DNA from: an uncultured Gammaproteobacteria bacterium
Lineage (GTDB): Bacteria; Patescibacteriota; Microgenomatia; Woykebacterales; RBG-16-39-9b
Assembly (NCBI GenBank): GCA_964367355.1
Contig: CAYIWY010000003.1
Coordinates: forward strand, 36,919 to 100,918
Direction of reading: 5' to 3'
Length of the DNA stretch: 64,000 bases
The position numbers and the translations under genes were made by a program. Shown here piece after piece: positions 11,400-27,876 of the stretch; position 1 is the stretch's first letter, and every line of letters begins with the position of its first letter. The notes below the pieces were generated by a model. The model worked only from the letters and a program-made list of their open reading frames with translations. It had not been told where the DNA came from and did no database searches.

Positions 11400-11430
11400 T
11401 TTTAATGTCCTCGGTAACTTTGTAGATACC

Positions 11431-11606: not shown

Positions 11607-11692
11607 AATATATGATTAATAACAAAATGTTGCAACTTTTTAAGACGTATGATAATATGACGATGGTTCTGAAAAGAACCCCATAATTTGCT

Positions 11693-11737: not shown

Positions 11738-11767
11738 AACTATTATCACTTATAGAATAGATAGGTT

Positions 11768-12307: not shown

Positions 12308-12326
12308 ATAAAAATCCCCTTTACAC

Positions 12327-12335
12327 CCCCCCCCG
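12327..12335. repeat. Poly-C homopolymer tract (C9) in the intergenic region upstream of 12364 ORF
   Basis: cccccccccc run. Confidence 0.9.
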
Positions 12336-12363
12336 TTTCTTTTGCTACCACCAAAATGCTAAA

Positions 12364-13071: not shown

Positions 13072-13109
13072 CTTTGAAGCCAAAAACTTGATATTTGAGT
13101 AAAAAATTT

Positions 13110-13189
13110 GAGACTCCACATGGAGGTCATAAGTTATAGATCGCTTCGCGCCCTGCGACCACTGGTAGTTTAGAGAAATCAGTGGCGTT
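13110..13189 (-). other. secA 3' flank (3' UTR) conserved with copy 2; contains hairpins
   Basis: ~85% identical to the corresponding part of 11431-11520; CCACUG...CAGUGG and CUCCA-UG-UGGAG stems. Confidence 0.4.
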
Positions 13190-15898
13190 TTAGGCTTTAG
13201 CCTTGGCCATATTTTCTTGATGTGTCGGGCTATTTATTAAACCACAACGTTTATACTTTAGACCACTACCGCACGGACAAGGGTCGTTGCGGCCGATTTT
13301 GTCGTCAGTGCGAACTACACGAGTTACGGTTGGGGCGGAAGTTGACGAGCTCGATGTGGTGGTGTGTTGGTGGCCCTCGTGACCTTTTTGCTGTTCTTGA
13401 GGAGCGATTTGAACTTTATAAATTCGGTGGGCGATTTCAAAATCAATATTGTGAATCAACTCTTCAAAAAGCTTGAAAGCCTCGGCTTTGTACTCGACTA
13501 GTGGATCCTTGCCGGCATAACCGCGCAGGCCGACCCCTTCACGAAGTTCATCAACATCGTCAAGATGGTTGACCCAAAGAGTATCGATCACGGAAATCAT
13601 AACCAGTTTTTCGATTTCACGTTCTATTTCTGATCCTACTTGTTTTTCTCTTCCGTCAAAAACTTCATGGGCGATGTTTGTTAACGACTCTTTTATTTTG
13701 GTCGGGAATTTTTCTTCTTTAATTTTTTCAGCTAAAGACTTTTTGGTTGGTTCGTCAAAGGGAATAATAGTTACAAATTCATTTAAAATTCTTTCTTCCT
13801 CGACTGTTTCAGCTTCACCGGTTGCAAGATCAACTAAGCTTTCTATTTCAACATCAATTTTTTCCAGGATTCTTTCTTTTAGTTCTTTTTGAGCCTCTAC
13901 TTTATTTTCGTTTTGACGATCCCCAAGTTTCAGAATTTCGCGGCGCATTGAGTAGATTATTTCTCGTTGCTTATTCATTACATCGTCATATTCGACAACT
14001 CGTTTTCGAGCGTCGAAGTTTTGGCCCTCGACTCGGGACTGGGCTGATTCAATCGCTTTGCTCACAAGGCCTGCTTCGATCGGAACCTCGTCAGGCAATT
14101 TGAAAGCGTTCATGACTCGCTCGACAGCGTCTCCACCGAAAAGTCGCATCACATCATCTTGCAAAGAAACAAAGAAACGAGTTGAACCAGGATCACCTTG
14201 TCTTCCGGAACGACCACGAAGTTGGTTGTCGATTCGACGAGCCTCGTGTCTTTCGCTTCCAATAACGTGCAAGCCTCCAAGTTTGGCAACACCTTTGCCA
14301 AGTTTGATATCGACTCCACGTCCGGCGATATTGGTTGCTAGTGTAACTGCCCCTTCTTGTCCGGCAGCAGCAATAATTTGTGCTTCATGTTCATGATTTT
14401 TGGCGTTCAAAAGTTCAAACGGAACACCCCTTCGTTTTAGAAGATCACCAAGTAGTTCATTTTTTTCGATTGAAGTTGTTCCAACCAAAACTGGTTGTCC
14501 TATTTTATGCTTCCCGGCAATATCTTCAATAATCGCGCTGTACTTACCCTTTTCGTTTTTGTAGACCAGATCAGAAAGATCCTCTCTGATCGTGGGTCTA
14601 TTGGTTGGAATTACAACAGCATCAAGTTTGTAAACTTTATGAAATTCTTCAGCTGAGGTAACCGCAGTTCCGGTCATCCCGGCTAATTTATTGTACAGTC
14701 GGAAATAATTTTGGAAAGAAACTGTTGCCATGGTTTGACTTTCACGTTGAATCTCGACCCCTTCTTTGGCTTCGATTGCTTGGTGCAGGCCTTCGCTGTA
14801 ACGGCGGCCGGGCATTAGTCGGCCGGTAAACTCGTCAACGATGATGACCTCACCTTCTTTAACAACATAGTCTCGATCTTTGAAAAAAAGAGTTCGGGCT
14901 TTGAGCGCTTCTTCAATGTGATGGACGCTGTCAAAATCTTTTTCATATAAATTATCGACTCCGGTCATGCGTTCGATTTTGGAAATTCCAATTTCAGTTA
15001 AATTGGCAGTTTTCATTTTTTCGTCAACTACGTAATCAGTCTTGTCGGTCAATTTGTCGATGATTTTGGCAAACTCGTAGTATTTTTCAGTTGATTCCTC
15101 AGCGGCTTGGGAAATAATTAACGGTGTTCTGGCTTCATCGATCAAGATCGAATCGACTTCGTCAACAATCGCAAAATTCAAATCTCGCTGGACCATATTG
15201 TGTAGATCTTGGGCCATATTGTCGCGGAGATAGTCAAAACCGTACTCATTGTTGGTGCCATAAGTAATATCAGCTAGATAAGCCTGATTGCGGTTAACTT
15301 CTCTCAAAAATTTTCCGACACCTAAGCCTTCTTGCTCCGGGGAAAGTGATTCTTCCGGATCCATCTTCACCTCGACTTCCTCAGTTGCGGGTGTCTTTGG
15401 GTCAGGATCAAAAACGTAGGATACTTCATGGTTGATTACTCCAACTGAAACTCCCAGTGCGTGAAATATCGGTCCCATCCACTCAGCATCACGTTTTGCC
15501 AGATAATCATTTACAGTAACTAAATGAACACCTTTGCCTTCAAGTGCATTTAGATAGAGGGGGAGAGTAGCAACTAAAGTTTTTCCTTCTCCGGTACGCA
15601 TTTCCGTAATTTTTCCTTGGTGAAGCATTATCCCACCCATGAGCTGAACGTCGAAATGACGTTGTCCGATGCTGCGACGGGCAGCTTCCCGAACTGCCGC
15701 AAAAGCTTCTGGAAGTAGTTCATTAAGTGTTTCACCATCGCTTAAACGTTTTTTAAATTCGCCTGTTACAGCCTTTAATTTTGAATTTGAGAGTTTTTTA
15801 AAATCAGCTTCGTGGGAGTTAGTTAGCTCAACAAAAGCTTTTAGTTTTTTAATTTCACGTTCGTTTGAATCTAGTAAATTTCCAAGTATTTTGAACAT
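13190..15898 (-). CDS. secA: Preprotein translocase ATPase SecA
   Basis: 902 aa; DEAD motor motifs (MRTGEGKTL, LVTVNDYLAKRD, DEVDSILIDEARTPLIIS); C-terminal zinc finger CPCGSGLKYKRC followed by an unusual 16-aa extension shared with the duplicated fragments. Confidence 0.95.
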   Translation of the reverse strand: MFKILGNLLDSNEREIKKLKAFVELTNSHEADFKKLSNSKLKAVTGEFKKRLSDGETLNELLPEAFAAVREAARRSIGQRHFDVQLMGGIMLHQGKITEMRTGEGKTLVATLPLYLNALEGKGVHLVTVNDYLAKRDAEWMGPIFHALGVSVGVINHEVSYVFDPDPKTPATEEVEVKMDPEESLSPEQEGLGVGKFLREVNRNQAYLADITYGTNNEYGFDYLRDNMAQDLHNMVQRDLNFAIVDEVDSILIDEARTPLIISQAAEESTEKYYEFAKIIDKLTDKTDYVVDEKMKTANLTEIGISKIERMTGVDNLYEKDFDSVHHIEEALKARTLFFKDRDYVVKEGEVIIVDEFTGRLMPGRRYSEGLHQAIEAKEGVEIQRESQTMATVSFQNYFRLYNKLAGMTGTAVTSAEEFHKVYKLDAVVIPTNRPTIREDLSDLVYKNEKGKYSAIIEDIAGKHKIGQPVLVGTTSIEKNELLGDLLKRRGVPFELLNAKNHEHEAQIIAAAGQEGAVTLATNIAGRGVDIKLGKGVAKLGGLHVIGSERHEARRIDNQLRGRSGRQGDPGSTRFFVSLQDDVMRLFGGDAVERVMNAFKLPDEVPIEAGLVSKAIESAQSRVEGQNFDARKRVVEYDDVMNKQREIIYSMRREILKLGDRQNENKVEAQKELKERILEKIDVEIESLVDLATGEAETVEEERILNEFVTIIPFDEPTKKSLAEKIKEEKFPTKIKESLTNIAHEVFDGREKQVGSEIEREIEKLVMISVIDTLWVNHLDDVDELREGVGLRGYAGKDPLVEYKAEAFKLFEELIHNIDFEIAHRIYKVQIAPQEQQKGHEGHQHTTTSSSSTSAPTVTRVVRTDDKIGRNDPCPCGSGLKYKRCGLINSPTHQENMAKAKA

Positions 15899-16001: not shown

Positions 16002-16076
16002 ACTTTGCGAAGCAATGTGAGTGAAGTGATACTTTGCGAAGCAATGTGAGTGAAGTGATACTTTGCGAAGCAATGA
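16002..16076. repeat. Tandem direct repeat, 29-bp unit x 2.6 (ACTTTGCGAAGCAATGTGAGTGAAGTGAT)
   Basis: Two perfect and one partial unit; no spacers, so not CRISPR. Lies in the secA upstream region. Confidence 0.9.
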
Positions 16077-16135
16077 AACGATTCAGCTCTTGACAAAAAA
16101 TCTCTATCGTTTATTATCTTCTCGGGTGTTACCCT

Positions 16136-16170
16136 AACCCCGACTCTGCAAAGAGCCGGGGTCTTTTTTT
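16136..16170 (+). terminator. Rho-independent terminator-like hairpin just upstream of the RAYT gene
   Basis: AACCCCGACTCT-gcaa-AGAGCCGGGGT + CTTTTTTT; preceded by TTGACA-16-TATTAT. IS200-family left ends are known to carry such terminators. Confidence 0.5.
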
Positions 16171-16211
16171 CCTTTGACAAAATTCTACCCCAGGGGTATC
16201 CTGTCTATAGG

Positions 16212-16784
16212 ATGAGCACCCCTATTAGACATTTTCAACAAAATAGTTACTATCACGTTTTTAATAGAGGTAACCACAAAAGTGACATTTTTCTCAATCC
16301 GTACGATTATTTACGGTTTCTTGAAAAAATTGAAGAATATAAGGATAAATGTCAGATAAAAGTTTTGTGTTTCTGTTTAATGCCGAATCATTTTCATTTA
16401 CTTTTGCAACAACTCAGTGACATACCGTTGACTAAATTTATGCTTTCTCTATCAACAAGTTATTCAAAGTACTTCAATATTAAATATGACCAGGTTGGGA
16501 GACTGTTTCAGGAAAGATTTAGAGCGGTTGAAGTCACTACTGATGAATATTTGTTGTATCTTACAAAATATATTCATCTTAACCCAACTAAACTTAAAGT
16601 TGATATTACAAAATATAAATGGTCCAGTTTAAATAATTACATTGATTATAGCGAATGGGATTTTGTTGAACCTGAACCTATTCTCAACTATTTTTCACAA
16701 ATAAATCCGAAAAAAGATTATTTGAATTTTGTGTTGGAAAATATATCAAATGTTGTTGGAGTTGAGAAGTTGTTAATCGATTAG
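16212..16784 (+). CDS. REP-associated tyrosine transposase / IS200-like TnpA (Y1 HUH)
   Basis: YHVFNRGN ... CLMPNHFHLLLQ (HUH motif) ... LTKYIHLNP (catalytic Tyr region), collinear with RAYT family. Confidence 0.8.
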   Translation: MSTPIRHFQQNSYYHVFNRGNHKSDIFLNPYDYLRFLEKIEEYKDKCQIKVLCFCLMPNHFHLLLQQLSDIPLTKFMLSLSTSYSKYFNIKYDQVGRLFQERFRAVEVTTDEYLLYLTKYIHLNPTKLKVDITKYKWSSLNNYIDYSEWDFVEPEPILNYFSQINPKKDYLNFVLENISNVVGVEKLLID

Positions 16785-16866
16785 TCTTATAATGTTGCTA
16801 CCCCTGGGGTTGAGCGGGATGTTGTTGGGCTTTGACACAACCTTTCAGTTTAAGTAATCTTATAGA

Positions 16867-17583
16867 GTGAAAATAGTAATTATTATCCCCACCTATTGCG
16901 AAGCAGCCAATATTATCAAATTAATTCCCGCCATCAAAAAACAAAAATCTTTGAATATGTATGAACCAGAACTTTTGGTTGTTGATGACAATAGCCCTGA
17001 CAAAACAGCCGATATAGTCCGAAATTTTATGAAAACAGATGAAAGAATCCATTTACTTACGGGAAACAAAATGGGTTTGGGAGCAGCTTATATTCGGGGG
17101 ATGAAGTATGCGATTGAGAAACTTGCAGCTGAAGTTGTGGTCGAAACTGACGCCGATTTTTCTCACGATCCGGGCGATATTTCGAGATTAATAAGTGAAA
17201 TTGAAAAAGGAGCTACTTTTGTTATTGGCAGTCGCTATATCGAGGGTGGAAAAATCAAAAATTGGTCGTTTTTTCGCCATTGGCTGAGTGGTTTGGGAAA
17301 TATAGTTGTTCGCAAAGCTTTGGGGTTACAAGAAGTTCAAGATTGTACCGCCGGGTTTCGGGCAATAAAAACTGATTTGATCAAAAAAGTTAATCTTGAT
17401 TCAATCAAAGCCAATGGTTACGCTTTTCAAGTTTGGTTGCTTTACAGTGCCTGCAAAGTGGGTGCCAAAATTAAAGAAGTTCCAGTAGAATTTGTCGATC
17501 GGCAGGTCGGGAAGACGAAACTTGGGTTTTGGGATATAATTGAAGGAATTATTATTTTGTTCAAGTTAAGAACAATAAAGTAA
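16867..17583 (+). CDS. GT2 polyprenol-phosphate mannosyl/glycosyltransferase (DPM1-like)
   Basis: GTG start; IIIPTYCEAANI ... LLVVDDNSPDKT ... TDADFSHDP ... VIGSRY: DPM1/GtrB-type GT2 motifs (DxD, DADxSHxP). Confidence 0.8.
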   Translation: MKIVIIIPTYCEAANIIKLIPAIKKQKSLNMYEPELLVVDDNSPDKTADIVRNFMKTDERIHLLTGNKMGLGAAYIRGMKYAIEKLAAEVVVETDADFSHDPGDISRLISEIEKGATFVIGSRYIEGGKIKNWSFFRHWLSGLGNIVVRKALGLQEVQDCTAGFRAIKTDLIKKVNLDSIKANGYAFQVWLLYSACKVGAKIKEVPVEFVDRQVGKTKLGFWDIIEGIIILFKLRTIK

Positions 17584-17627
17584 CGCAATATATGGCAAGA
17601 TTCGGTAACATTTGGTAATATGTTGGT

Positions 17628-18614
17628 ATGAAGATCCCTCCTTCGTATACAGTTACTCCAGAAATGCTGGGGTTTATTGCCAAAATTGAAGCTGAGCGAT
17701 TGCATATTGCATCCCTTACCCTCCCAAAACCTCTAAAAGAAAAAATCCAAAGAGTTAGCCTTTTAAAAAGCTCTCTTTTTTCAGCTCGTATTGAAGGAAA
17801 CCCACTTAAACTTGCAGATGTTGACACAGGAAATAAAAAATCCCAAAAGAAAATAGAAGTATTCAATATCACAAAAGCAATAAGGTTTATAGATGGTCAT
17901 GTAAGAAAAGGTGATCTAAAGATTGATACTCTTTTACAGATTCACATGCTGGTTCTCAAAAATCTAAGTCCTGGTGCCGGTCACATAAGAGCCACGGCAA
18001 GTGCGATTTTCAACCAGGCTGGTGTTGCCGTTTACATGCCACCGCCACCTCGTTCTATTTCAAAGTTGCTAGACGATTTACTCTTCTTTGTTAACTCGGA
18101 TACGGAAAAGTTTCCTCTTATAGCCGCTTTTGTTGCTCATCTTGTCTTTGAAAAAATCCACCCTTTTTTAGACGGAAACGGGAGAGTAGGTAGGCTTCTT
18201 ATTTCCTCAATACTAAAATCCCGCGGTTGGGATTTTACTTTCTCCGTACCATTCGAAGAATATCTAGATAACCACAAAGATGATTACTATTTTCACTTGG
18301 ACAAGGGGCAAGTTGATACTAATGATTATTTGCTTTTTATGCTTGAGGCTTTCTGGCAACAAACTCAAACTATAAAAGCTCAAATCGAAGAAGAATTAGC
18401 TCGTGGCGACAAAGTGTTTTTACCTCCAAGGCAGGAGGAGATATACAATGTAATACGCGATCATAAAGTTGTTCCTTTTGATATGATAAGGCGTAGGTTT
18501 GTTAAGGTACCAGAAAGGACGTTGCGATACGATTTAAAGAAACTTTTAGATAGAGAGCTTATTGAAAAAAGCGGAGAAACAAGAGGGCGGTTTTACCGAG
18601 TTAAGAACAAATAG
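17628..18614 (+). CDS. Fic/Doc-family protein (AMPylator-type) with N-terminal inhibitory motif
   Basis: Fic motif HPFLDGNGRVGR; N-terminal SARIEGN matches the [S/T]xxxE[G/N] auto-inhibition helix of class II Fic; C-terminal wHTH-like region. Confidence 0.85.
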   Translation: MKIPPSYTVTPEMLGFIAKIEAERLHIASLTLPKPLKEKIQRVSLLKSSLFSARIEGNPLKLADVDTGNKKSQKKIEVFNITKAIRFIDGHVRKGDLKIDTLLQIHMLVLKNLSPGAGHIRATASAIFNQAGVAVYMPPPPRSISKLLDDLLFFVNSDTEKFPLIAAFVAHLVFEKIHPFLDGNGRVGRLLISSILKSRGWDFTFSVPFEEYLDNHKDDYYFHLDKGQVDTNDYLLFMLEAFWQQTQTIKAQIEEELARGDKVFLPPRQEEIYNVIRDHKVVPFDMIRRRFVKVPERTLRYDLKKLLDRELIEKSGETRGRFYRVKNK

Positions 18615-18689
18615 TTGTACAAAACTTACCTTATTTTTCCAGTTAATATATAATTGAGGGAATTATTATTTTGATTAAATTAAGAATTT

Positions 18690-19613
18690 ATGTCTAAAGT
18701 AATTGTTGCCGGAGGAGCTGGGTTTCTCGGCTCTCACATAAATAAAGTACTACTTGATCAAGGTCACCAAGTTCGTGTTATAGACAATTTATCGACTGGT
18801 TTTAAAGAAAACATCGATCCACGTGCCGAATTTGTTCAAGTGGATTTGGCCTCTCAAGATGAATTAGCAAAATCACTTTCAGGATTTGAGGCTGTAATTC
18901 ATTTAGCCAATTCAATCATCGTCCCGGAGTCAGTTGAAAAACCGGTAGAATATGCAGAGAACAATGTAGTTAACAGCGTAAAATTGCTTGAAGCGATGAA
19001 GGAAGCTGGAGTTAGAAAGATAATTTTTTCCTCTTCGGCAACAGTTTACGGAGACAGCGGAAAACTGCCGTTGACTGAAAGTAGCCCACTTGGAGTTCAA
19101 AACAATCAATATGGAGCTTCCAAAGTTGCCATGGAAGCTTTTATTGGGGTTTATCACAAGCTCTACAATTTCGACACAATTATTTTGCGTTATTTCAATC
19201 CATTTGGACCAAATGAAAAACACGAGCCGGAAACTCACGCAATTCCAAATTTTATTCAGGCAGCCTTAAAGAAAGAAGAAATCCCACTTTACTGGAAAGG
19301 CGAGCAAGTCCGCGATTTTATTTATGCTCCAGATTTGGCCGAAGCTCACTCGGCTGTTTTGGACCTGAAAGGTTTACAAATATTTAATGTCGGAACGGAG
19401 ACTGGAACAAAAGTTATTGATACAGTTCACGAAATCTTCAAAATAGTCGGTTACGAGGTTCCAATCAAAGATTTAGGGGAAAGAGCTGGGGACGCTGCTG
19501 CAACTTACGCTAGTTCAGAGAAACTGATGTCGACTACTGGTTGGAAGGCAAAACACTCACTTCACGACGGGTTAGTTAAAACTATCGAATATTTCAAAAA
19601 CCAAAATGATTAA
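18690..19613 (+). CDS. NAD-dependent sugar epimerase/dehydratase (GalE-like)
   Basis: Rossmann GGAGFLGSH; catalytic YGASK; short-chain dehydrogenase/reductase (SDR) extended family. Confidence 0.8.
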   Translation: MSKVIVAGGAGFLGSHINKVLLDQGHQVRVIDNLSTGFKENIDPRAEFVQVDLASQDELAKSLSGFEAVIHLANSIIVPESVEKPVEYAENNVVNSVKLLEAMKEAGVRKIIFSSSATVYGDSGKLPLTESSPLGVQNNQYGASKVAMEAFIGVYHKLYNFDTIILRYFNPFGPNEKHEPETHAIPNFIQAALKKEEIPLYWKGEQVRDFIYAPDLAEAHSAVLDLKGLQIFNVGTETGTKVIDTVHEIFKIVGYEVPIKDLGERAGDAAATYASSEKLMSTTGWKAKHSLHDGLVKTIEYFKNQND

Positions 19614-20583
19614 CGAGAAGAAAATTGTTGTTATTGGTGGAGGAACCGGGACTTATACTGTCTTGTCTGGGCTAAAAAAAATTTCTGCCCAAATTACCGC
19701 GGTTGTGACCATGATGGACTCCGGTGGGTCTTCAGGACGTTTGCGCGACGAGTTTGGACAACTTCCAACCGGAGACGTCCGTCAGGCTTTGGTGGCGCTA
19801 AGTAACGACTCTTCCGTAATGCGACAGCTGTTCAATTATCGATACGAAAAAGGGGAAGGTCTGCAAGGACATAGTTTTGGAAACCTTTTTTTAACCGCCC
19901 TTGCTGAGGTAACCGGGGGGATGGAAAATGCCCTACAAGAGGCTGGAAGAATTTTGAATATTAAAGGCAGTGTTCTTCCGGTTACATTATCTAATTCCAA
20001 TTTAGTTGCCGAATATGAAAACGGACTGATAGTTAAGGGAGAAAATGATATCGATGTTCCGAAACATGATGGAAAACTTCATATAACGAGACTTTCTTTG
20101 GAGCCAAAAGCAGCACCTTTTGAAAAAACCCTTGCTGCAATCTCCCAAGCAGATTTAATCATTCTTGGTCCAGGGGATATTTATACCAGTTTAATCCCAA
20201 ACCTTGTAGTTCCAAAAGTTGCTGATGCAATTTGTAATTCAAAAGCCAAAAAGGTTTATATTGTTAACCTAATGACAAAGTTTGGCCAAACCTACAATTT
20301 TAAAGCCAGCAATTTTGTCGCTGAAATAGAAAAATATTTAGGAAAATGTTTAGACTATGTTTTGATCAATAATAAAGATTTACCAGAGGCTATTATTGAA
20401 CGTTACAAGGCCGAAAACGATTCTCCAGTGGAAGATGATCTTAACGACTCAAACTACAAAGTTATCAGAGAAGATTTGCTGGCAACCGAACCAATTGAAA
20501 GAAAAGCTGGTGATGTTCTTCAAAGAAGCCTGATTCGTCATGATTCTGATAAACTTTCACAAATACTTACAACTTTAGTTTAA
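19606..20583 (+). CDS. yvcK: YvcK/CofD-like (UPF0052) gluconeogenesis factor family protein
   Basis: VVIGGGTGTYTVLSGLK ... VTMMDSGGSSGRLRDEFG ... PTGDVRQAL. Confidence 0.85.
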   Translation: MINEKKIVVIGGGTGTYTVLSGLKKISAQITAVVTMMDSGGSSGRLRDEFGQLPTGDVRQALVALSNDSSVMRQLFNYRYEKGEGLQGHSFGNLFLTALAEVTGGMENALQEAGRILNIKGSVLPVTLSNSNLVAEYENGLIVKGENDIDVPKHDGKLHITRLSLEPKAAPFEKTLAAISQADLIILGPGDIYTSLIPNLVVPKVADAICNSKAKKVYIVNLMTKFGQTYNFKASNFVAEIEKYLGKCLDYVLINNKDLPEAIIERYKAENDSPVEDDLNDSNYKVIREDLLATEPIERKAGDVLQRSLIRHDSDKLSQILTTLV

Positions 20584-20612
20584 ATTTATATATTGACATA
20601 ACTTTACGACAT

Positions 20613-20888
20613 GTGTACCATATGTTTAGTATGATTAGAACTTACATTTACTTTCCTAAGGAATTAAATAGCGAAATTGAGGTTTTAGCCAAAGATGTTA
20701 ATAAAAGCAAAGCTAGTGTAATTAGAGAAGCCTTGCAAGAAGGTCTAAATTCCATTAAAAAGCAAAAAAGTGGCGGTATTGAGGCTCTTCTTAAAATTGC
20801 TGATTTAGGTGAAAAAATAAAAGCAAAAGGCCCAAGTGATTTATCTTCTAATATAGATAAGTATTTGTGGGAAAATTGGAATGTATAA
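20613..20888 (+). CDS. Ribbon-helix-helix antitoxin (VapB/CopG-like)
   Basis: 91 aa; upstream of and overlapping the PIN gene by 8 nt; paralog of 21469-21723. Confidence 0.5.
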   Translation: MYHMFSMIRTYIYFPKELNSEIEVLAKDVNKSKASVIREALQEGLNSIKKQKSGGIEALLKIADLGEKIKAKGPSDLSSNIDKYLWENWNV

Positions 20889-21312
20889 GAAGTTAAAAAC
20901 TATCGTGGTAGATGCAGACGCGATCGTCGCCCAAGCACACCCAGACGATTCTAACCATAGAAAAGCTCTTTCCACCACGCAATATTTAAAAAGTATTAAC
21001 GCACGTGTAGTTTATCCGACCACAGCAGTGTGTGAAGCAGTGACAGTTTTACAACATAAATTGGAAAACTCCGCTACCGCATACGGTACAGCCGTGATAT
21101 TCACCGACCCGGCTCTTCAGGTAGTGGAGATTAATCAAGAAATTATGACGCAAGCAATTAACAATCATTTTAGGCCACACACAAGTAAGAAAAACACTTT
21201 ATTTGATTGTATTGTCCTGGAAATTGCAGAGCAATACAGCGCTGATGCTATCTTCTCATTCGATCACTTTTACAAAAGTAAGGGGTTTAAATTAGCCAGT
21301 GAACTAAAATAG
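20881..21312 (+). CDS. PIN-domain toxin (VapC-like)
   Basis: IVVDADAIVAQ... PIN N-terminal; paralog of 21716-22141. Confidence 0.7.
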   Translation: MYKKLKTIVVDADAIVAQAHPDDSNHRKALSTTQYLKSINARVVYPTTAVCEAVTVLQHKLENSATAYGTAVIFTDPALQVVEINQEIMTQAINNHFRPHTSKKNTLFDCIVLEIAEQYSADAIFSFDHFYKSKGFKLASELK

Positions 21313-21468
21313 TCAATTTTGATACCCTGCTCTTAGGTTTTCAATCCATATACCTTTACTTTTACTAGCAATAATACCTTGATGTATCGGTCTAATATCT
21401 CTGTTTGACTCATTATAGTACATGTACTATTGACATACATCACATATTTAGGGTAAAGTAAATCTACT

Positions 21469-21723
21469 ATGTTGAGAACAAATGTTTATTTAACAAAAGA
21501 ACAGGATCAGGAAATTAAAACTCGTGCTAATGCGACACAAAGAGCTAAAGCTGTAGTTCTGCGTGAGATTATTGAAACAGGAATAAAAGTTACCAATTTA
21601 CAAAAGTCTGCTTCTACCGAAGTCTATATGAAACTTGCCAACATAGCTGACCAGTTTAAGGGTAAAGGCACTGCTCCAAAAGACCTTTCTGCAAATTTAA
21701 ATAAGTATACTTGGGATGAATAA
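21469..21723 (+). CDS. Ribbon-helix-helix antitoxin (paralog)
   Basis: Shares ...KGKG.APKDLS.NL.KY.W. C-terminal pattern with 20613-20888. Confidence 0.5.
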   Translation: MLRTNVYLTKEQDQEIKTRANATQRAKAVVLREIIETGIKVTNLQKSASTEVYMKLANIADQFKGKGTAPKDLSANLNKYTWDE

Positions 21724-22141
21724 ACCGCTAATTGTTATCGCTGACGCTGACTCAATTGTTGCCCAGGCATACGCTGATGACTCTAACCACAAGCTAGTTT
21801 TAGGTTTAGCACAAAAACTTCATGATCAAAGAGCACATATTCTTTTTCCGGCAACAGCAATCGCCGAAGCAGTGACCACCCTGCAAAGAAAATTTTCAGA
21901 CCCACATTTAGCCGCTTCTACACTTGAAGTTTTTACTGAAATTGGTGTCTCAATTGAAAATATAGACGATGAAGTAATTCGTGAAGCGAGGAAGTTATTC
22001 GACCCAAACAAAAGTAAGCAGAACACTTTCTTCGATTGCATAGTCGCTACTGAAGCTAAAAAACACCATGCAGACGCTATTTTCTCTCTCGACACTTGGT
22101 ATACAAAACTAGGTTATAAATTAGTTTCCGATTTGTTTTAG
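21716..22141 (+). CDS. PIN-domain toxin (VapC-like, paralog)
   Basis: LIVIADADSIVAQAYADDSNH... collinear with 20881-21312. Confidence 0.7.
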   Translation: MNKPLIVIADADSIVAQAYADDSNHKLVLGLAQKLHDQRAHILFPATAIAEAVTTLQRKFSDPHLAASTLEVFTEIGVSIENIDDEVIREARKLFDPNKSKQNTFFDCIVATEAKKHHADAIFSLDTWYTKLGYKLVSDLF

Positions 22142-22158
22142 GTTTACTTCATTGTGGG

Positions 22159-22195
22159 TTGACGTTTGTACACATTTGTACTAATATGTACTTAT
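22159..22195 (+). promoter_or_regulatory. Putative promoter/operator with TGTACA/TGTACT repeats
   Basis: TTGACG then TTTGTACACATTTGTACTAATATGTACT; same TGTAC operator theme as at 10046-10080. Confidence 0.4.
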
Positions 22196-22210
22196 TAGAT
22201 TTAATTCAGT

Positions 22211-22531
22211 TTGAGAATTGAGGTGAATAAGATAACTATGATCGAAATAATGAAAGCATCAGAAGCAAGACAACAATGGAGTCAAGTTCTAAACAAAGTA
22301 TTCCGTAATCAAACTCGAGTAATTGTTGAAAAAAGTGGTATTCCAGTAGCCGCTGTCATTTCTACTGAAGATCTGCAACGATTAACTGCCCTAGAAGAAC
22401 AGCGTAAAGAACGCTTTAAAGCACTCGATAAAATGCGCGAAGCCTTCAAGGATGTTCCTACTGAAGTAGTCAAACAGGAGATTAATAAAGCAGTTACCCA
22501 AGTACGAGTAGAGAAACGGTCTAACGGTTAG
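22211..22531 (+). CDS. Phd/YefM-like antitoxin
   Basis: 106 aa; SEARQQWSQVLNKV ... RVIVEKSGIPVAAVISTEDLQRL. Confidence 0.6.
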   Translation: MRIEVNKITMIEIMKASEARQQWSQVLNKVFRNQTRVIVEKSGIPVAAVISTEDLQRLTALEEQRKERFKALDKMREAFKDVPTEVVKQEINKAVTQVRVEKRSNG

Positions 22532-22541
22532 TCGCTAATAT

Positions 22542-22964
22542 ATGATTTCAGCAGTTTTGGATACTAATGTCTTAGCATCAGGTACTTTGGTTGCCTTTAC
22601 TCCTCCTGGTCAAATACTCAATGCATGGCGAGCTAACGAATTTGAGTTAGTGCTATCAGAACATATTATTGGTGAGCTGACTCGAACACTTCAGAAGCCT
22701 TATTTTCAAAACCATGTTACTAGTCAGAAAATCGTTTCTTTTATCGACTTATTGCAAAACGAAGCAACTATTATTTCCATAACTGTGAATATTGAAGGAG
22801 TAGCCACTCATCCAGAAGACGATCTGGTACTTGCGACTGCTGTTAGCGCAAAGGTTGACTACTTAGTAACTGGAGACAAACCCCTTATTGAAAAAATTGG
22901 TGATTCTTATCACAAAATTAACCTTGTTACCCCAGCCAATTTTCTACAAATACTTAAACGATAG
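22542..22964 (+). CDS. PIN-domain toxin
   Basis: MISAVLDTNVLASG... PIN N-terminus; conserved D/T. Confidence 0.7.
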   Translation: MISAVLDTNVLASGTLVAFTPPGQILNAWRANEFELVLSEHIIGELTRTLQKPYFQNHVTSQKIVSFIDLLQNEATIISITVNIEGVATHPEDDLVLATAVSAKVDYLVTGDKPLIEKIGDSYHKINLVTPANFLQILKR

Positions 22965-23040
22965 AATTAACAATACGCATACAATTGTATATAATCGCAT
23001 ATAGATAGTCTGCACAAACCATGTTAAAAAAAATAGAAAG

Positions 23041-23179
23041 ATACCAAGTTATTCGCGAAGATTTGTTAGCTGCTGAACCAATTGAAAGAAAAGCTGGGGA
23101 TGTGTTGCAAAGAAGCCTGATTCGGCATGATAGTGAAAAGTTAGCTAAAGTAATATCTAGATTCCCTTTAGTTGTTTGA
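23041..23179 (+). pseudogene. Diverged duplicate of the yvcK 3' end (fragment 1)
   Basis: Translates YQVIREDLLAAEPIERKAGDVLQRSLIRHDSEKLAKVI..., ~85% nt identity to 20455-20583 (VIREDLLATEPIERKAGDVLQRSLIRHDSDKLSQILTTLV*). Confidence 0.75.
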
Positions 23180-23292
23180 CAAACCGTCTCAATATGATAC
23201 GATATAGTCCATGAGTGAGACGATTCTAACTCTTCGACAGCTGACTTAAACCCTTCTGTTAAAAAGTCAACACAATTTCTAGTATTCCTAAG

Positions 23293-23916
23293 TTACAGAT
23301 TACTAAGTTTCTTAACTTCACTCCTCAATCTTTTTTTTACCTCTTCGAAAGCAATACCATTATTATTTTTAAATATTATTTTCTCCTGCATAACATCTTC
23401 AAAATAAACCAGGCTTTTCAAGATCAAGTTCCTGTCTAATTGGGGGTATTTCCTACGAGCCTTATCTAAGAGATCAGATAGTGAAAAAATCTTTAAAATA
23501 AAATACAGGTCAATGTAATCCTTGTTACTTGCTCTTGTGGTGATGGCCGATAACTTCATGCAACCGATATCTGCTATTCCAGCATAAGTTATATTTTCAT
23601 CACTAATGGTTTCATCGATTAATTTATATTTATAAGTAAAAAAGCTTATCTTTACTGAGTCATCAATTAGCACTGTTAGCGTATTGTTTTCTTCTTGTAT
23701 TTTTAATAATTTATACCCTTCAAAAAATTTTCTTAATCGTTCAAATAATCTTGCAGTATGTATGTCTCCATCGCTAAAAAAATCAAAGTCTAGACTGTCT
23801 CGATGCCCTATTTGTAAAGCTAGGGATGTCCCGCCAGCAAGGTAGAAATCATTCTTAAAATTTTTAAAAAGAGGTAGGAGGTCGAGTCTTTTTTTATCTA
23901 AAATAGTGTAAAACAT
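23293..23916 (-). CDS. AbiEii/AbiGii-like nucleotidyltransferase (putative toxin)
   Basis: LAGGTSLALQIGHRDSLDFDFF matches the GGTAL...R.S.DiDf N-terminal signature of DUF1814/AbiEii; paralog of 41422-42084. Confidence 0.5.
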   Translation of the reverse strand: MFYTILDKKRLDLLPLFKNFKNDFYLAGGTSLALQIGHRDSLDFDFFSDGDIHTARLFERLRKFFEGYKLLKIQEENNTLTVLIDDSVKISFFTYKYKLIDETISDENITYAGIADIGCMKLSAITTRASNKDYIDLYFILKIFSLSDLLDKARRKYPQLDRNLILKSLVYFEDVMQEKIIFKNNNGIAFEEVKKRLRSEVKKLSNL

Positions 23917-23918
23917 AA

Positions 23919-24188
23919 CTATCTCAAAATTCTTATATTAGCCTGTCCGGGCTCAACATCCAGCAGAAGAGACCAAAAAACTATCGATTTATTATTCCAT
24001 TCTCCGGGCAAGGGATGAATCAGACAAGCTTTGATATCTGCCTTTGAGTACACCTTAAAAAGCCAATCAGTTGCCTCTTTTGTACCAAGATTCAGCACAT
24101 TGGTGATAATCCGCTTTTTATCAGCTGCTAGGTCTAATTCTTTAATATCATACGACCATAAAAAAGGCTGAACAAATTTAGGTATCAT
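23919..24188 (-). CDS. Small partner protein of the AbiEii-like NTase (putative antitoxin)
   Basis: Directly upstream; weakly similar to 41225-41425 (LINLGLNG vs VLNLGTKE). Confidence 0.4.
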   Translation of the reverse strand: MIPKFVQPFLWSYDIKELDLAADKKRIITNVLNLGTKEATDWLFKVYSKADIKACLIHPLPGEWNNKSIVFWSLLLDVEPGQANIRILR

Positions 24189-24349
24189 AACTATATTTTA
24201 ACACAGCTCGCCCGTTTTATCAGTGGCCTGAAGTTCGTGATATTGGAGCTGGATCGTTGATAACAAGTTCAGTACCAAGCACAAAGATTTGCAAACGAGA
24301 CTTATTTTAGATAACTAATTTTCGGATATAAAATGGGCTGGGGGACACA

Positions 24350-24415
24350 CAGGCAAGAAGCCTAATTCGGTATGATAGCGGTAAACTTTCTGGAATAATC
24401 ACAAATTTACTTTAA
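24350..24415 (+). pseudogene. Diverged duplicate of the yvcK 3' end (fragment 2)
   Basis: Translates QARSLIRYDSGKLSGIITNLL*, matching the last ~20 codons of yvcK. Confidence 0.65.
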
Positions 24416-24445
24416 CTTTAGTTTGTTTGTGGTAAAATAGCACGC

Positions 24446-24559
24446 ATGAAAGGTGCAATACTAGCGGGTGGTAAGGGAATACGACTTTATCCTTTAACTC
24501 ACGCAACCAATAAACATCTACTTGCGGTTTTTGATAAGAAAGTTTTAAAAAAATTATAG
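24446..24559 (+). pseudogene. N-terminal remnant (37 codons) of a glucose-1-phosphate nucleotidyltransferase (RfbA/RmlA-like)
   Basis: [32 protein letters not shown] matches the RmlA N-terminus (MKGIILAGGSGTRLYPIT...K.LLP..DKP); premature stop. Confidence 0.6.
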
Positions 24560-24565
24560 GAATGA

Positions 24566-25369
24566 ATGAAAAACATTAGAAATCACTATCGATACCCCAT
24601 TATTCTATTAAAGCAACTAGTCAAGACCGACTTTAAGTTACGCTACCAAGGTTCGGTGTTGGGTTATTCCTGGTCATTGTTAAGACCAATGATACTCTTC
24701 CTGATCTTGTACATAGTATTCGTTAAATTTTTGCGAATAGGTGGGGATACCCCACACTTCGCGGTTTATTTACTGCTAGGAATCGTTGTCTGGGGATATT
24801 TTGCAGAAGTAACAATAGGAAGTGTTAGTTCTATTGTGGCTCGTGGTGATTTGCTGCGAAAGATAAACTTCCCTAAGTATGTCATTGTACTCGCTGGTTC
24901 GTTTTCGGCCTTCATAAACCTCCTGCTCAACTTTGTAGTTATAGCTGTTTTTATGTACATTGACGGAGTTGATCTCCGTTTTACCGTAATTTTATTCCCA
25001 ATTCTGTTGTTGGAACTATATATATTTTCTTTAGCTTTAGCTTTTGTTTTGAGCGCTGTATTTGTTCGTTTCCGGGACATGAATTATATATGGGAGGTAG
25101 TAATGCAGGCGGCCTTCTACGCCACTCCAATCTTATATCCTTTGAGTTTGGTGCCGCTTAGTGCCTCCAAAATCTTAATGCTAAATCCAATGGCACAGAT
25201 TATTCAAGATCTTAGGTACATTCTAATTACCCCACAAGCTGTAACAGTTGATCAGATTTACAACACGCAATATATACGTTTGATTCCTATTACGATCGTC
25301 CTTCTTAGCGTCATTTTTGCAGCACTGTACTTTAGAAAACGATCAAAGTTTTTTGCGGAGGATGTGTAA
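24566..25369 (+). CDS. ABC-2 type polysaccharide export permease (Wzm/TagG-like)
   Basis: 267 aa, 6 predicted TM helices, ABC-2 family pattern; immediately upstream of ATPase. Confidence 0.8.
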   Translation: MKNIRNHYRYPIILLKQLVKTDFKLRYQGSVLGYSWSLLRPMILFLILYIVFVKFLRIGGDTPHFAVYLLLGIVVWGYFAEVTIGSVSSIVARGDLLRKINFPKYVIVLAGSFSAFINLLLNFVVIAVFMYIDGVDLRFTVILFPILLLELYIFSLALAFVLSAVFVRFRDMNYIWEVVMQAAFYATPILYPLSLVPLSASKILMLNPMAQIIQDLRYILITPQAVTVDQIYNTQYIRLIPITIVLLSVIFAALYFRKRSKFFAEDV

Positions 25370-25372
25370 ATT

Positions 25373-26566
25373 ATGAAAAATAAGCAAGAAACGACTATAA
25401 GAGTGGAAGGAGTTTACAAGGATTTTCGATTGCCCTACGAAAAAATATCAACAATTAAATCACTTTTTTTGGATGTTCTAAAAGGAAAATTATTTAAGCG
25501 TAGCTACGAAATGCAACAGGCGCTTAAAGACATTAGTTTTGAAATAAATAAAGGCGAATTCTTTGGTATAGTTGGCCGTAATGGTAGCGGCAAAAGTACC
25601 CTGCTGAAGATTCTGGCCGGGATATACCAACCAACCAAGGGCAAGGTCAGCGTACGTGGTAAGCTGGTGCCGTTTATAGAGCTAGGAGTTGGATTTAACC
25701 CAGAACTTACCGGGCGGGACAACGTATATCTAAACGGCGCGTTGCTAGGCTTTGACCACAAAGAAATAGATGACATGTACGACAGTATTGTAGAGTTTGC
25801 CGAGCTAGAGCAGTTTATGGACCAAAAACTAAAGAACTACTCGTCCGGTATGCAGGTGCGATTAGCCTTTTCAATGGCTATCCGTGCTAAAGCAGATATT
25901 TTGCTAGTCGACGAAGTACTTGCGGTTGGTGATGCTGATTTTCAAAGAAAATGCTTCGAGTATTTTCAGCGGATTAAAGCTGAAGGAACAACTGTTGTCT
26001 TTGTAACACACGACATGGCAGCGGTTAGGCAATATTGTGACAGAGTAGCGCTGATAGATATGAATAAATTGATTTATTTAGATGATGCCGAGACAGTTGC
26101 CAAAAAATATACACAGCTTTTTACTGAAGACAAAGCTGATCAAGAACAGCCTTCAAAACAGACAAAACGCTGGGGAGATAAAAAGGCAGTTTATGAGAGA
26201 GCTACGATCATTCTTGTTGATAATCAAAAAAATATTTTGTTAAGCGCTATGGTACAAGCTAAAGAAGATATATCAGACCCAAACTATGGGTTTATGGTTT
26301 CAAACCAAGCGAAACAACCTATACTGGGCACCAACTCAAAAATCGAGCAGGTCAAAATAAAACCTCTTAAAGCAGGGCAACAGATTAATTTGGAGTGGAA
26401 ATTTCCAAATATTTTTAATGAAGGTAGGTTCTATGTCGAACTTGCATTGATGCATAACACGACGCAAGTAGCTGATTGGTGGGAAAAAGCCACAACATTT
26501 ACTGTAAAAAATGAAAAAAGAACGCCTTATATTGTAAATCCGCCAACTGAATTTTCGAGCAAGTAG
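25373..26566 (+). CDS. ABC transporter ATP-binding protein (Wzt/TagH-like) with C-terminal extra domain
   Basis: Walker A GRNGSGKST, signature YSSGMQVRLAF, Walker B ILLVDEVLAVGD; ~150-aa C-terminal extension as in Wzt proteins that bind modified glycan termini. Confidence 0.85.
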   Translation: MKNKQETTIRVEGVYKDFRLPYEKISTIKSLFLDVLKGKLFKRSYEMQQALKDISFEINKGEFFGIVGRNGSGKSTLLKILAGIYQPTKGKVSVRGKLVPFIELGVGFNPELTGRDNVYLNGALLGFDHKEIDDMYDSIVEFAELEQFMDQKLKNYSSGMQVRLAFSMAIRAKADILLVDEVLAVGDADFQRKCFEYFQRIKAEGTTVVFVTHDMAAVRQYCDRVALIDMNKLIYLDDAETVAKKYTQLFTEDKADQEQPSKQTKRWGDKKAVYERATIILVDNQKNILLSAMVQAKEDISDPNYGFMVSNQAKQPILGTNSKIEQVKIKPLKAGQQINLEWKFPNIFNEGRFYVELALMHNTTQVADWWEKATTFTVKNEKRTPYIVNPPTEFSSK

Positions 26567-26625
26567 TTTATATGAGCTTGGATCTATCTTTACCTTACGA
26601 CCATTATTTTGATAGGATATAGATT

Positions 26626-27876
26626 ATGACCGAATACAAAAAAAGTGTGGTTTCAGGCGCCACTTTGGAGCCACTATTTAGTATAGGAGAACTGTATGTA
26701 TCGGACTTTTTGAAGAAGAATGAGAAGCCTAAAGGGTTACCATGCGAGCTAGAGCTAGGGTTTGACCCAGTCAGTAAGGCAGTACAGTTAACTAAACAGC
26801 CAGACGCTTCGCTGATGTGGGGTAGCATGTACTACTATCGTAGTGCTGTCAACCCAGCTATGCGCGGTGCTTTGCGTGATTTAGCTGAAAGAACCTGTAA
26901 ATCAATTCCTGAAACCCAAAAGAAAACTGTATATTTGGACATTGCTTCGAACGACGGATATTTATTATCTACGGTCGACAAAAAAAAGTATCTATGTGTC
27001 GGGATAGATCCCTCAGATTATCCTGAAGCCAAAGATAATACCGACGTCAATATTCAGGAATATTTTTCAGCTAAGGCCTTTATCGATGCTGGTTTTACCA
27101 AAGCCTCAAGGATTAGTTGTGCCGCTTGCTTCTATGATGTTGATGAGCCAGAAAAATTTCTGAAGGATGTCTATGATATTCTTGAAAATGATGGATTGTT
27201 CACATTGCAAATTTCATACACTCCAGCGAATATTCTACAAACTGAGTTGGGGGTTATTTGCCACGAGCATTTGTCCTATTACAACCTGACGTCGGTCAAA
27301 TGGATGACTGACAGAGTTGGTTTTGTTATTAGAGACGTGGAGTTAAATAACGTCAATGGAGGCTCAATACGACTATACTTGCAAAAGAAAGATGCTCAGA
27401 ACAACTATCTGACTCCAGCTGACCGAGACGTCTGTAAAATCCGGGTCGAGTCTTTGTTGCTTTGGGAAGAACAGTCAGGTTTTAACGACCCAAAAATATA
27501 CAAGGATTTTTACAAACAGATATTAGAACTCAAGGAAGAAACAGTAACATTCATTAAAAAAGTAAAAGCGAGTGGTAAATCTGTTTGGGGTTATGGAGCA
27601 AGCACTAAAGGCAACACCTTGCTCCAGATGTTTGGGTTGGACAATAGTTTGATTGATGGTATCGCCGAAAAACAGGAATTTAAATGGGGGAGACACACTG
27701 TTGGTACCAACATACCGATTTATTCAGAAGCAGAGATGCGCAAGGTGCAACCAGACTACCTATTAATACTTCCTTGGTTTTTTCGAGATACTTTTATTGA
27801 GCGTGAGAAAGAATATCTTAAAAAAGGAGGCACAATGATTTTCCCAGCCCCCCACTTCTCTACCTATCCACTATAG
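26626..27876 (+). CDS. Class I SAM-dependent methyltransferase (sugar C-/O-methyltransferase-like, two-domain)
   Basis: Motif I-like VYLDIASNDGYLL (cf. VLEIGSNDG of TylCIII-type MTases); 416 aa. Confidence 0.5.
   Translation: MTEYKKSVVSGATLEPLFSIGELYVSDFLKKNEKPKGLPCELELGFDPVSKAVQLTKQPDASLMWGSMYYYRSAVNPAMRGALRDLAERTCKSIPETQKKTVYLDIASNDGYLLSTVDKKKYLCVGIDPSDYPEAKDNTDVNIQEYFSAKAFIDAGFTKASRISCAACFYDVDEPEKFLKDVYDILENDGLFTLQISYTPANILQTELGVICHEHLSYYNLTSVKWMTDRVGFVIRDVELNNVNGGSIRLYLQKKDAQNNYLTPADRDVCKIRVESLLLWEEQSGFNDPKIYKDFYKQILELKEETVTFIKKVKASGKSVWGYGASTKGNTLLQMFGLDNSLIDGIAEKQEFKWGRHTVGTNIPIYSEAEMRKVQPDYLLILPWFFRDTFIEREKEYLKKGGTMIFPAPHFSTYPL

Follow-up and report, generated by a model that had tools for sequence, protein, structure and literature searches.

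We analysed a 64-kb stretch of contig CAYIWY010000003.1 (hereafter the window), which covers part of a roughly 1-Mb symbiont-type groundwater Patescibacteria genome, and we concentrated on the run of small toxin–antitoxin (TA) and defence genes that lies between yvcK and the transporter gene wzm. The DNA from 20589 to 24354 (3.8 kb) is an insertion behind yvcK, because relatives carry yvcK without a cassette at this position. We consider it fairly probable that this island grew by accretion, through two or more single-crossover (Campbell-type) insertions in succession that were anchored on the last ~25–45 codons of yvcK. Direct repeats of the target flank the inserts in the form of three yvcK-tail copies, the outermost of which is contiguous with the native flank.

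The yvcK gene and its tail copies

The yvcK gene (19606–20583, + strand; 325 codons), the anchor of the island, encodes a UDP-GlcNAc-binding protein of the YvcK/CofD family. Its product is a full-length YvcK (Pfam CofD, 318 bits; TIGR01826, 328 bits against a cut-off of 196, residues 7 to 324), and the gene is ~80% identical at the nucleotide level to its orthologues in two related loci, L089 and L090, which came to light through a look-up of homologues of the AbiEii toxin described below. On these grounds yvcK is predicted to be intact and functional.

The original prediction, made from the bare sequence, held that the end of yvcK recurs twice downstream, and a self-comparison of the region bears this out. 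Specifically, window self-BLAST aligned 20455–20552 with 23042–23139 (82.7% identity over 98 nt, E 2e-21) and 20523–20588 with 24355–24420 (77.3% over 66 nt, E 1e-6). The local alignment scores of 147 and 81 exceeded the shuffle maxima of 63 and 56, respectively, and a repeat search was concordant. The nucleotide similarity is significant for both fragments, so the anticipated objection that it would vanish on proper alignment falls away; the figures first proposed, ~85% identity for one copy and 24350–24415 for the other, were close. As had also been proposed, the tail copies partition the insertion.

Copy 1 (20455–20588, + strand; self-BLAST and alignment) is the 3' end that serves the working gene; it begins at Tyr283 and extends 5 nt beyond the stop codon. 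In the alignment it is collinear with native L089 sequence through 20588, and beyond this point the inserted DNA begins with the promoter of cassette 1. Copy 2 (23042–23179, + strand; self-BLAST, codon comparison and alignment) is an intact 45-codon yvcK tail whose 5' boundary falls sharply at the Tyr283 codon (23042). Its first 68 nt are 81–87% identical to clade tails (84–87% to L089 and L090, the same closeness as copy 1), and its last 61 nt are divergent (54–67%). The native stop position is overwritten in this copy, and the frame extends for four codons into the native-like post-stop spacer (TTTAGTTGTTTG).

Over 33 alignable codons, copies 1 and 2 differ at 18 nucleotides, 15 of them synonymous and 3 non-synonymous, including Ser TCT/AGT and Arg AGA/CGC switches; the proportion of synonymous differences (pS) is 0.70 and the ratio of non-synonymous to synonymous change (dN/dS) is 0.02. 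With dN/dS this low and synonymous sites saturated, copies 1 and 2 diverged while each belonged to a working gene. Copy 2 is thus a former working yvcK tail, either of a related lineage or of this one, and at least one of the two tails would be an import from another lineage of the same clade.

These values bear directly on a purely local origin of the repeats, in which slippage or unequal exchange duplicated the tail in tandem, with cassettes settling between the copies afterwards, or in which the assembly is a chimera of co-existing strains. Unequal sister exchange can indeed create direct repeats, and contigs of several samples break within the region. However, an unused duplicate would decay neutrally, with dN/dS near 1, as opposed to the 0.02 of copy 2 with its saturated synonymous sites, and the junction 23041/23042 lies outside any shared k-mer. 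Moreover, independent assemblies are identical across all junctions. In Hainich groundwater assemblies, fragments of the YvcK locus are identical or 99% identical to the window; two contigs, L035 (equal to 16046–23387) and L103 (equal to 23024–26952), are 100% identical to it and jointly cover the array, and all array junctions are the same in independent assemblies from different wells and runs (L035, L036, L096 and L103). Since independent contigs agree at 100% across all junctions, the array is no assembly artefact. A local or chimeric origin is thus largely refuted, and we regard it as hardly credible.

Upstream of copy 2, the spacer 22965–23041 (+ strand; promoter scan and list of open reading frames, ORFs) lacks similarity to yvcK and probably represents the truncated edge of inserted DNA. 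It holds a promoter-like site (22967–22995, 11/12 matches) and an ATG at 23021, from which 7 codons are fused in frame to copy 2. Public assemblies annotate the resulting ORF (52 aa, 23021–23179) as a gene, and it makes up a protein cluster of its own, P0001. As a protein query for a donor YvcK or other tail fragments, it returned only a 98% identical strain variant with the same contig arrangement. Present-day selection on an expressed mini-protein was considered as a cause of the low dN/dS of copy 2 and judged unlikely, there being no visible ribosome-binding site, although a strong promoter-like site and an ATG do precede the copy. In annotation, short gene-tail ORFs of this kind beside TA genes would be better treated as insertion scars than as genes.

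Copy 3 (24338/24355–24415), together with the native yvcK–rmlA spacer, makes up the segment 24338–24445 (+ strand; L089 alignment). It is decayed (in-frame reading GD.Q.RSLIRYDSGKLSGIITNLL*), shows a dN/dS of 0.22 against copy 1, carries the clade-typical DSGKLS.IIT motif and is significant only from ~24338/24355 onward. Its decay and the loss of similarity upstream of ~24338 fit the oldest, outermost scar of the series. An upstream extension of copy 3 to 24273, with TACCAAG as a shared boundary, did not attain significance (35–117 of 1000 shuffles reach the score) and was discarded.

Native flank and empty sites

The outer side of the island was compared with L089, in which the gene order is GT2, epimerase, yvcK, rmlA, rmlC, rmlB, rmlD, wzm and yvcK directly abuts rmlA. 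Positions 24354–24538 of the window match the uninterrupted yvcK-end/rmlA-start junction of L089 at 88% over 185 nt, which exceeds the ~80% of the surrounding genes. Because of this match, copy 3 and the adjoining rmlA stub are recognised as native DNA, namely the original yvcK end, displaced outward and still joined to its neighbour. The stub (24446–24559, + strand) comprises 37 codons and is a real rmlA N-terminus, as had been suggested, with 29/31 residues identical to L089 RmlA. It had been taken for the closing part of the cassette array; the comparison instead points to a native scar, left by a ~3.4-kb deletion (relative to L089) of the 3' part of rmlA with rmlC, rmlB and rmlD. Similarity to L089 ends at codon 32 (~24539), 27 nt upstream of wzm (24566–25369, + strand; ABC-2 transporter permease; Pfam ABC2_membrane and L001/L089 gene order), the first intact gene past the island. 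The stub was also considered as a head duplicate of a full rmlA in the window; no such rmlA was found, and L089 synteny explains it.

That a genuine insertion lies behind yvcK, as first proposed, is supported by empty sites. The YvcK protein assigns the window to Patescibacteria (CPR), and relatives were drawn from 34 species representatives, the loci of a metagenome scan, L089, L090 and L001. L089, which with L090 is ~80% identical to the window at the nucleotide level across secA, GT2, epimerase and yvcK, has no cassette at the site, and neither has L001, in which wzm follows 55 nt after yvcK. A yvcK-tail duplicate was found in 0/34 species representatives, the best of which share 73%, 72% and 68% YvcK identity, and in none of the metagenome-scan loci nor in L089 or L090. 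YvcK matches in the metagenome scan came only from the same strain (L058, L071) or from relatives at no more than 68% identity, none of which showed an alternative state of the insertion site.

A further element of the original prediction was that the motif CTTTAGTT, seen at all three boundaries, forms a shared core. Its occurrences (20573, 23166 and 24416) turned out not to be positionally equivalent: in copy 1 it comprises the last codons before the stop (ACT TTA GTT), and the occurrences in copies 2 and 3 belong to a second motif of similar sequence within the native post-stop spacer, where the native reading is CTTTAGTTTAAATTTAGTTTG. The window holds 9 matches against 5.4 expected, a number reached by 10/100 shuffles, and the motif is absent from the junctions of the other arrays. 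It is thus part of the duplicated native segment and not a recombination core.

Gene-end duplications elsewhere in the window

At least four further gene-end duplications bracket toxin or defence genes in the window, at secA, at the GT2/epimerase junction, at a polysaccharide deacetylase gene and, in a GT4 glycosyltransferase gene, at the 5' end. Across the sites, the repeats measure 39–143 nt with 77–90% identity and have no motif in common. At least five gene ends in 35 kb bear the signature, and it is fair to infer that the process recurs in this genome. The generality first claimed for gene 3' ends holds for secA, GT2/epimerase and deacetylase, but needs to be widened, since the GT4 case concerns a 5' end and the GT2/epimerase case an overlap of a 3' and a 5' end. 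At the protein level, 5 terminal duplicates were found in the 64-kb window versus 8 rows in 6 loci over ~780 kb of other Patescibacteria; one of these 8 candidate rows was inspected closely (L031), and several others are inverted or resemble paralogous gene heads. In L031, a Gottesmanbacteria metagenome-assembled genome, the last ~40 codons of a 459-aa gene (17266–17387) are duplicated 1.8 kb downstream at 19208–19330 (89% nucleotide and 91% amino acid identity), with a 448-aa repeat protein between the two; the geometry matches that of the window, but the cargo is another.

The last ~20 codons of secA (13190–15898, − strand) recur at 11496–11574 and 10595–10658 (array 10595–13246). The copies bracket an NYN gene with a 235-aa protein of unknown function, a VapBC pair and ParE/Phd pairs. 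The first repeat (11496–11574) also takes in an 86-nt native 3' untranslated region (UTR)/terminator, common to L089. On the 5' side, copies 2 and 3 have ~35 nt in common that do not belong to secA (0/2000 shuffles); in copy 3 this stretch is the 3' end of VapC. L089 itself has a decayed secA-tail remnant (L089 12204–12237) behind its own VapBC. We also noted that the last 62 nt of secA (13185–13246) are 98% identical to L089 10451–10512, compared with 81% for the whole gene, and that all secA tail copies are 89–94% alike, which suggests nucleotide-level constraint on the gene end or recent exchange at it.

At the GT2/epimerase junction, a SoFic-like Fic gene (17628–18614) is flanked by a ~40-nt direct duplication (17534–17572 and 18648–18686, 90% identical) that corresponds exactly to the overlap of GT2 stop and epimerase start in L089 and L090, both of which lack the Fic gene. 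Because the overlap itself was duplicated, GT2 and epimerase are both intact after the insertion.

The deacetylase tail 40314–40388 recurs at 43815–43889 (80% identity, mostly synonymous differences; dN/dS 0.05), a signature like that of yvcK copies 1 and 2. These copies bracket an orphan 93-aa ORF with no family match, a DUF6922-like/AbiEii pair, a plasmid-type Replic_Relax gene (42087–42857) and a ribbon–helix–helix (RHH)/PIN pair of VapBC type. Past this island lies a DUF5647/DUF7718 pair (44363–45097).

Finally, a MazE-type/PIN pair (37575–38261) is inserted in the 5' end of the GT4 glycosyltransferase gene (region 37380–38393). The old head of the gene (MRVGIDARFLGPDGTGIG, 37380–37436), now displaced, lies directly behind gmd. 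Head and upstream region of the working gene (38341) are both new, and this case is the 5'-end counterpart of the tail duplications. A ~95-nt conserved upstream element (TGAAAATAAGAACCTTTTC...AAGAACCTTGCATTCA...GGAGG...TGAAA) occurs at 38245–38340, 45341–45422 and 60922–61017, ahead of two GT4 glycosyltransferases and one nucleotidyltransferase. It has no Rfam match; a promoter, leader or regulatory RNA common to the three genes is conceivable.

Mechanism of insertion

We read the array as two nested Campbell-type insertions because its geometry is that of the experimental single-crossover product: the gene is intact, the insert follows and a truncated direct duplicate comes last, with an uninterrupted site in relatives. 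In experiments, single crossovers between a circle and the chromosome yield direct gene-end duplications of 109–950 bp, and when the origin of duplication-type events was tested directly, 56/60 were single crossovers of circles (PMC3240628).

In the scheme that we favour, the donor would be a small circle (a cassette excised together with its tail, or else a small plasmid) of a related Patescibacteria lineage, bearing the yvcK 3' end beside one or more self-contained TA operons. A crossover within the tail would insert the whole circle, so that yvcK would stay intact and a truncated second tail would be left beyond the cargo; a yvcK ending in ...DSEKLAKVISRFPLVV* is the working end to be expected in the donor state. 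An older event would have brought the DUF6922–AbiEii side and displaced the native tail (copy 3), still attached to rmlA, and a younger event the three PIN cassettes, displacing the then-working tail (copy 2). Later, cassettes would have been gained or lost within the slots, and rmlA–D would have been deleted. The order of events is suggested by the relative decay of the copies, and the intermediate was presumably circular. The same process would explain the other gene-end duplications in the window.

As to the catalyst, general homologous recombination (RecA/RecFOR) most likely did the work, rather than a dedicated integrase. It is favoured because no integrase was found among the window ORFs scanned, the repeats are 39–143 nt long without a shared motif, the yvcK flanks are dissimilar and RecO is encoded in the window. 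In addition, the Replic_Relax gene and a TraG-like gene are indications that circular or conjugative DNA is present in the genome. The search for recombinases was a Pfam scan of nearly all non-nested window ORFs of at least 90 aa plus the smaller cassette ORFs; wzt (ABC transporter ATPase, 25373–26566) stood outside it. No integrase, integrase fragment or serine recombinase was found in this set.

This result speaks against a dedicated-enzyme origin, in which decayed site-specific elements (prophages, or integrative and conjugative or mobilizable elements, ICE/IME-like) with tyrosine integrases targeted gene 3' ends, each supplying a replacement end in its attP. Erosion would have left the TA modules and att scars, or the inserts would be integrase-less satellites mobilised in trans. 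The geometry is that of icd/e14/icdC (PMC13626634), tandem accretion with older elements pushed outward and partial target copies is known from tycheposons (bioRxiv 10.1101/2020.12.28.424599), and islets with TA genes alone have been interpreted as mobile elements after erosion (PMC13617665). The sharp 5' boundary of copy 2 at 23042, the conserved 35-nt 5' arm common to secA copies and the nearby Replic_Relax and TraG-like genes would also suit such elements. On the other hand, the slots are compact, with spacers of 66–156 nt and no pseudogene debris, and at least five gene ends in 35 kb would require equally many specificities. Cassette 1 starts 5–10 nt past an apparently native stop, so no replacement tail is needed there. 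The yvcK junctions show no shared core or arm similarity: conserved element arms were rejected at these junctions (423–1756 of 2000 shuffles reach the scores), and the longest identical runs between yvcK tails, 23 and 17 nt, are not unusual for 33 conserved codons. An element-specific P-prime arm was considered for the 86-nt secA segment and likewise rejected, this segment being the native secA 3' UTR/terminator, present in L089 too. Integrase-driven insertion is on balance unlikely.

Transposition fits no better. The duplications, at 39–143 nt, come without terminal inverted repeats, and the only transposase-like gene is a weak Y1 homologue. Transposases of the repetitive extragenic palindromic (REP)-associated Y1 type make no target duplication. 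No inverted repeats stood out at the cassette boundaries in the repeat search. The window contains no tRNA gene and, among the ORFs scanned, no tyrosine recombinase, and the island is not of the tycheposon type. Nor is this a cassette array in the integron sense, as the original wording implied: no attC-like or structured spacers were detected (folding no better than shuffles, z −1.4 to +0.4; no Rfam match), and there is no integrase among the window ORFs scanned.

Linear DNA acquired by natural transformation offers another way to a duplication, through a one-sided anchor closed by an illegitimate join on the upstream side of the anchor (homology-facilitated illegitimate recombination, HFIR) or through sister-chromosome pairing in a merodiploid. 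The tails bear the signature of orthologues from related lineages; the downstream polysaccharide clusters of L089, L090 and L001 differ, so the second homologous arm would often be missing; a possible 4–5 nt AT-rich microhomology lies at 20585–20592; and the onset of similarity in copy 3 is abrupt, with nothing significant upstream of it. In pneumococcus, duplications driven by transformation are reported (PMC3784515). However, recombination with one-sided homology (HFIR) typically produces insertion with deletion and not duplication, in the same experiments that traced 56/60 duplications to circles (PMC3240628), and at least 7 duplications with zero HFIR-type deletions at these sites would be unexpected. 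We therefore hold this route to be very unlikely.

Several observations weigh against single crossovers with circles as well. No circular form, excision product or donor genome turned up in the metagenome and assembly look-ups, which gave only the same strain with the same arrangement; likewise, no extrachromosomal carrier was found when AbiEii and the exact secA, yvcK and GT2 tail motifs were compared with viral contigs and Replic_Relax with plasmids. The crossover points cannot be placed, the sequences being short and saturated. At the Fic site, 40 nt at 90% identity is about the lower limit for RecA-type recombination and better suits a site-specific enzyme, and the 35-nt non-secA 5' arm of the two displaced secA copies resembles a conserved element arm. 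Furthermore, 64 kb of the genome is visible, and a recombinase may be encoded elsewhere. Finally, gene-end duplications were not seen to flank the AbiE cassette in six other contexts; because they are missing there, duplication would be a property of the insertions of this lineage and not of the cassette.

A more far-reaching version of the favoured scheme takes the gene-end copies as 'address tags', by which TA or defence circles, or competence-acquired tail-flanked fragments, are inserted through host recombination without an integrase and re-excised through the tail repeats. This idea is tentative and, as we see it, rather doubtful. If true, it would describe an integrase-free, homology-addressed system of cassette capture and exchange, functionally analogous to the integron, and would explain the spread of TA modules in genomes without conventional mobile-element machinery.

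Cassettes inside the island

The slot between copies 1 and 2 holds three VapBC-type pairs, in agreement with the original description: PIN or PIN_3 toxins (24.9 and 29.5 bits for PIN and 63.9 bits for PIN_3, all over cut-off) with small antitoxins. Antitoxin and toxin genes overlap by 8 nt or are separated by a 10-nt gap, each pair has a promoter-like site, and the architecture appears to be that of type II VapBC systems. The slot consists of three separable cassettes, all on the + strand.

Cassette 1 (20589–21324) comprises a promoter-like site (20593–20621), an antitoxin with a weak RelB/RHH-like N-terminus (20613–20888) and a PIN toxin (20881–21312). Its boundaries are the −35 box and a point ~10 nt beyond the toxin stop, and its homology in other contexts spans 20586/20593 to 21319/21324. 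In L097 it is 91% identical at the nucleotide level and lies behind a different PIN_3 gene, with cassette 2 next; in L098 and L099 (87%) it has other neighbours, and in L100 identity is 69%. Cassette 2 (21379–22141) has its promoter-like site at 21430–21459, antitoxin at 21469–21723 and PIN toxin at 21716–22141. Because cassettes 1 and 2 share only 38–44% amino acid identity, they are distant paralogues and no recent duplicates. Cassette 3 (22142–22964) carries a promoter-like site (22159–22187) that includes a GTACA...TGTAC palindrome, a Phd/YefM antitoxin (22211–22531) and a PIN_3 toxin (22542–22964), with matches to Pfam PhdYeFM and PIN_3 and to TIGR01552 and TIGR00305.

At the stop of tail copy 2, the promoter scan found a further promoter-like site (TTGACA-16-TACGAT, 23176–23203, + strand), which points into the convergent AbiEii gene at its 3' end. 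It is overlapped by a 7-bp inverted repeat (CGTCTCA...TGAGACG, ~23185–23222), and this combined feature of promoter-like site and operator-like repeat (23176–23222) may be the remnant of another, lost cassette.

The slot between copies 2 and 3 contains the DUF6922–AbiEii cassette (23291–24206, − strand; DUF6922 23919–24188, AbiEii nucleotidyltransferase 23293–23916). An AbiE-like pair had been proposed here, and its nucleotidyltransferase is confirmed as AbiEii (Pfam, 45.9 bits against a cut-off of 22.5; PADLOC AbiEii, E 1e-5). Its partner, however, is not a canonical AbiEi but an 89-aa, antitoxin-like DUF6922 protein; no canonical AbiEi was found, and the DUF6922 protein has no PADLOC or NCBIfam match. 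The pairing is kept in all homologous loci examined. The toxin has 2957 homologues, the best 120 of which are 64–87% identical and include proteins whose source is named Peregrinibacteria, Liptonbacteria or Azambacteria; the similarity of these best 120 exceeds that of YvcK among the GTDB species representatives scanned (at most 73%). The pair lies between unrelated genes in seven other contexts; in L089 and L090 its neighbours are GT2 and secA. Its nucleotide homology (76–83%) is limited to the segment from 18 nt upstream of the first ATG through the toxin stop. With their sharp promoter-to-stop boundaries and unrelated contexts, the cassettes are independently mobile, modular and widely transferred in Patescibacteria.

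In L078/L079, a DUF6922–AbiEii copy is followed by a 58-aa short-chain dehydrogenase fragment (2331–2507), and in L085 by a 42-aa HATPase_c fragment (7446–7574). Full-length genes matching the fragments are absent from those loci, and the fragments may be comparable scars.

Comparison with known systems

The arrangement recalls e14 and phage 21 at Escherichia coli icd, where the insert lies at the 3' end of a housekeeping gene, the gene is intact and a displaced C-terminal fragment (icdC) remains beyond. The icd and icdC copies differ by synonymous changes and a few conservative substitutions (PMC13626634), as do the tails here. Unlike the present inserts, the 15-kb prophage e14 encodes an integrase of its own and excises on SOS induction; here the inserts are TA operons of 0.7–2.4 kb with no recombinase in view, two events are nested, and scars lie at at least four other ends.

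Tandem accretion of ICEs and cis-mobilizable elements (CIMEs) takes place at fda in Streptococcus thermophilus. Tycheposons at Prochlorococcus tRNA genes resemble the array in their repeated integration, in which newer elements push older ones outward, in their partial target copies and in the degradation of older elements (bioRxiv 10.1101/2020.12.28.424599). Tycheposon and ICE/CIME islands nevertheless occupy tRNA genes or one fixed site and contain tyrosine recombinases or their fragments, whereas several protein-coding gene ends and no tRNA are involved here. Campbell integration of suicide plasmids gives the same product of intact gene, insert and truncated duplicate (PMC3240628), but it is known as a laboratory event or a rare accident and is not described as a recurrent natural route to TA islands, and the tracts here are 39–143 nt at 77–90% identity.

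Chromosomal integron arrays, too, are ordered series of small cassettes, many of them TA operons with their own promoters (PMC13108822). No IntI, attI or attC was found here, and the punctuation consists of gene-end copies. The Photorhabdus TA 'islets' are TA-only islands between core genes, with the target sometimes duplicated on both sides, for which spread through recombination at the core genes that flank them has been proposed (PMC13617665). The duplicated sequence in Photorhabdus is a 24-bp palindrome resembling Tn3 res, as opposed to the coding ends of 39–143 nt found here, which carry the signature of other-lineage orthologues. The ingredients of the present case are each known, namely gene-end replacement, outward accretion, Campbell duplications and TA islets without mobility genes. 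Their combination, integrase-less cassettes of 0.7–2.4 kb behind several protein-gene ends of one small genome with imported tails as displaced ends, was not found described in the literature searched.

The entry of TA and small defence modules usually leaves nothing to see but bare islets, without mobility genes or scars. Here the scars are readable, in a displaced native end, an imported gene end with a signature of purifying selection and clean empty sites in relatives at ~80% identity, and they suggest how TA modules can enter a genome without a recombinase gene of their own nearby. In plasmid- and phage-depleted Patescibacteria, homology-anchored single-crossover exchange of accessory cassettes thereby becomes a testable question.

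Neighbouring genes

Between secA and GT2, at exactly the position that DUF6922–AbiEii occupies in L089 and L090, lies the gene for a 190-aa homologue of IS200-like Y1/REP-associated tyrosine transposases (16212–16784; 51 bits, NCBIfam cut-off 80). At the start of the window, 134–2779 encodes an 881-aa protein with coupling-protein domains of TraG/TraD/VirD4 type, followed by several large ORFs (2766–9315) without family matches. This region may belong to an element for conjugation or DNA transfer that adjoins the secA island.

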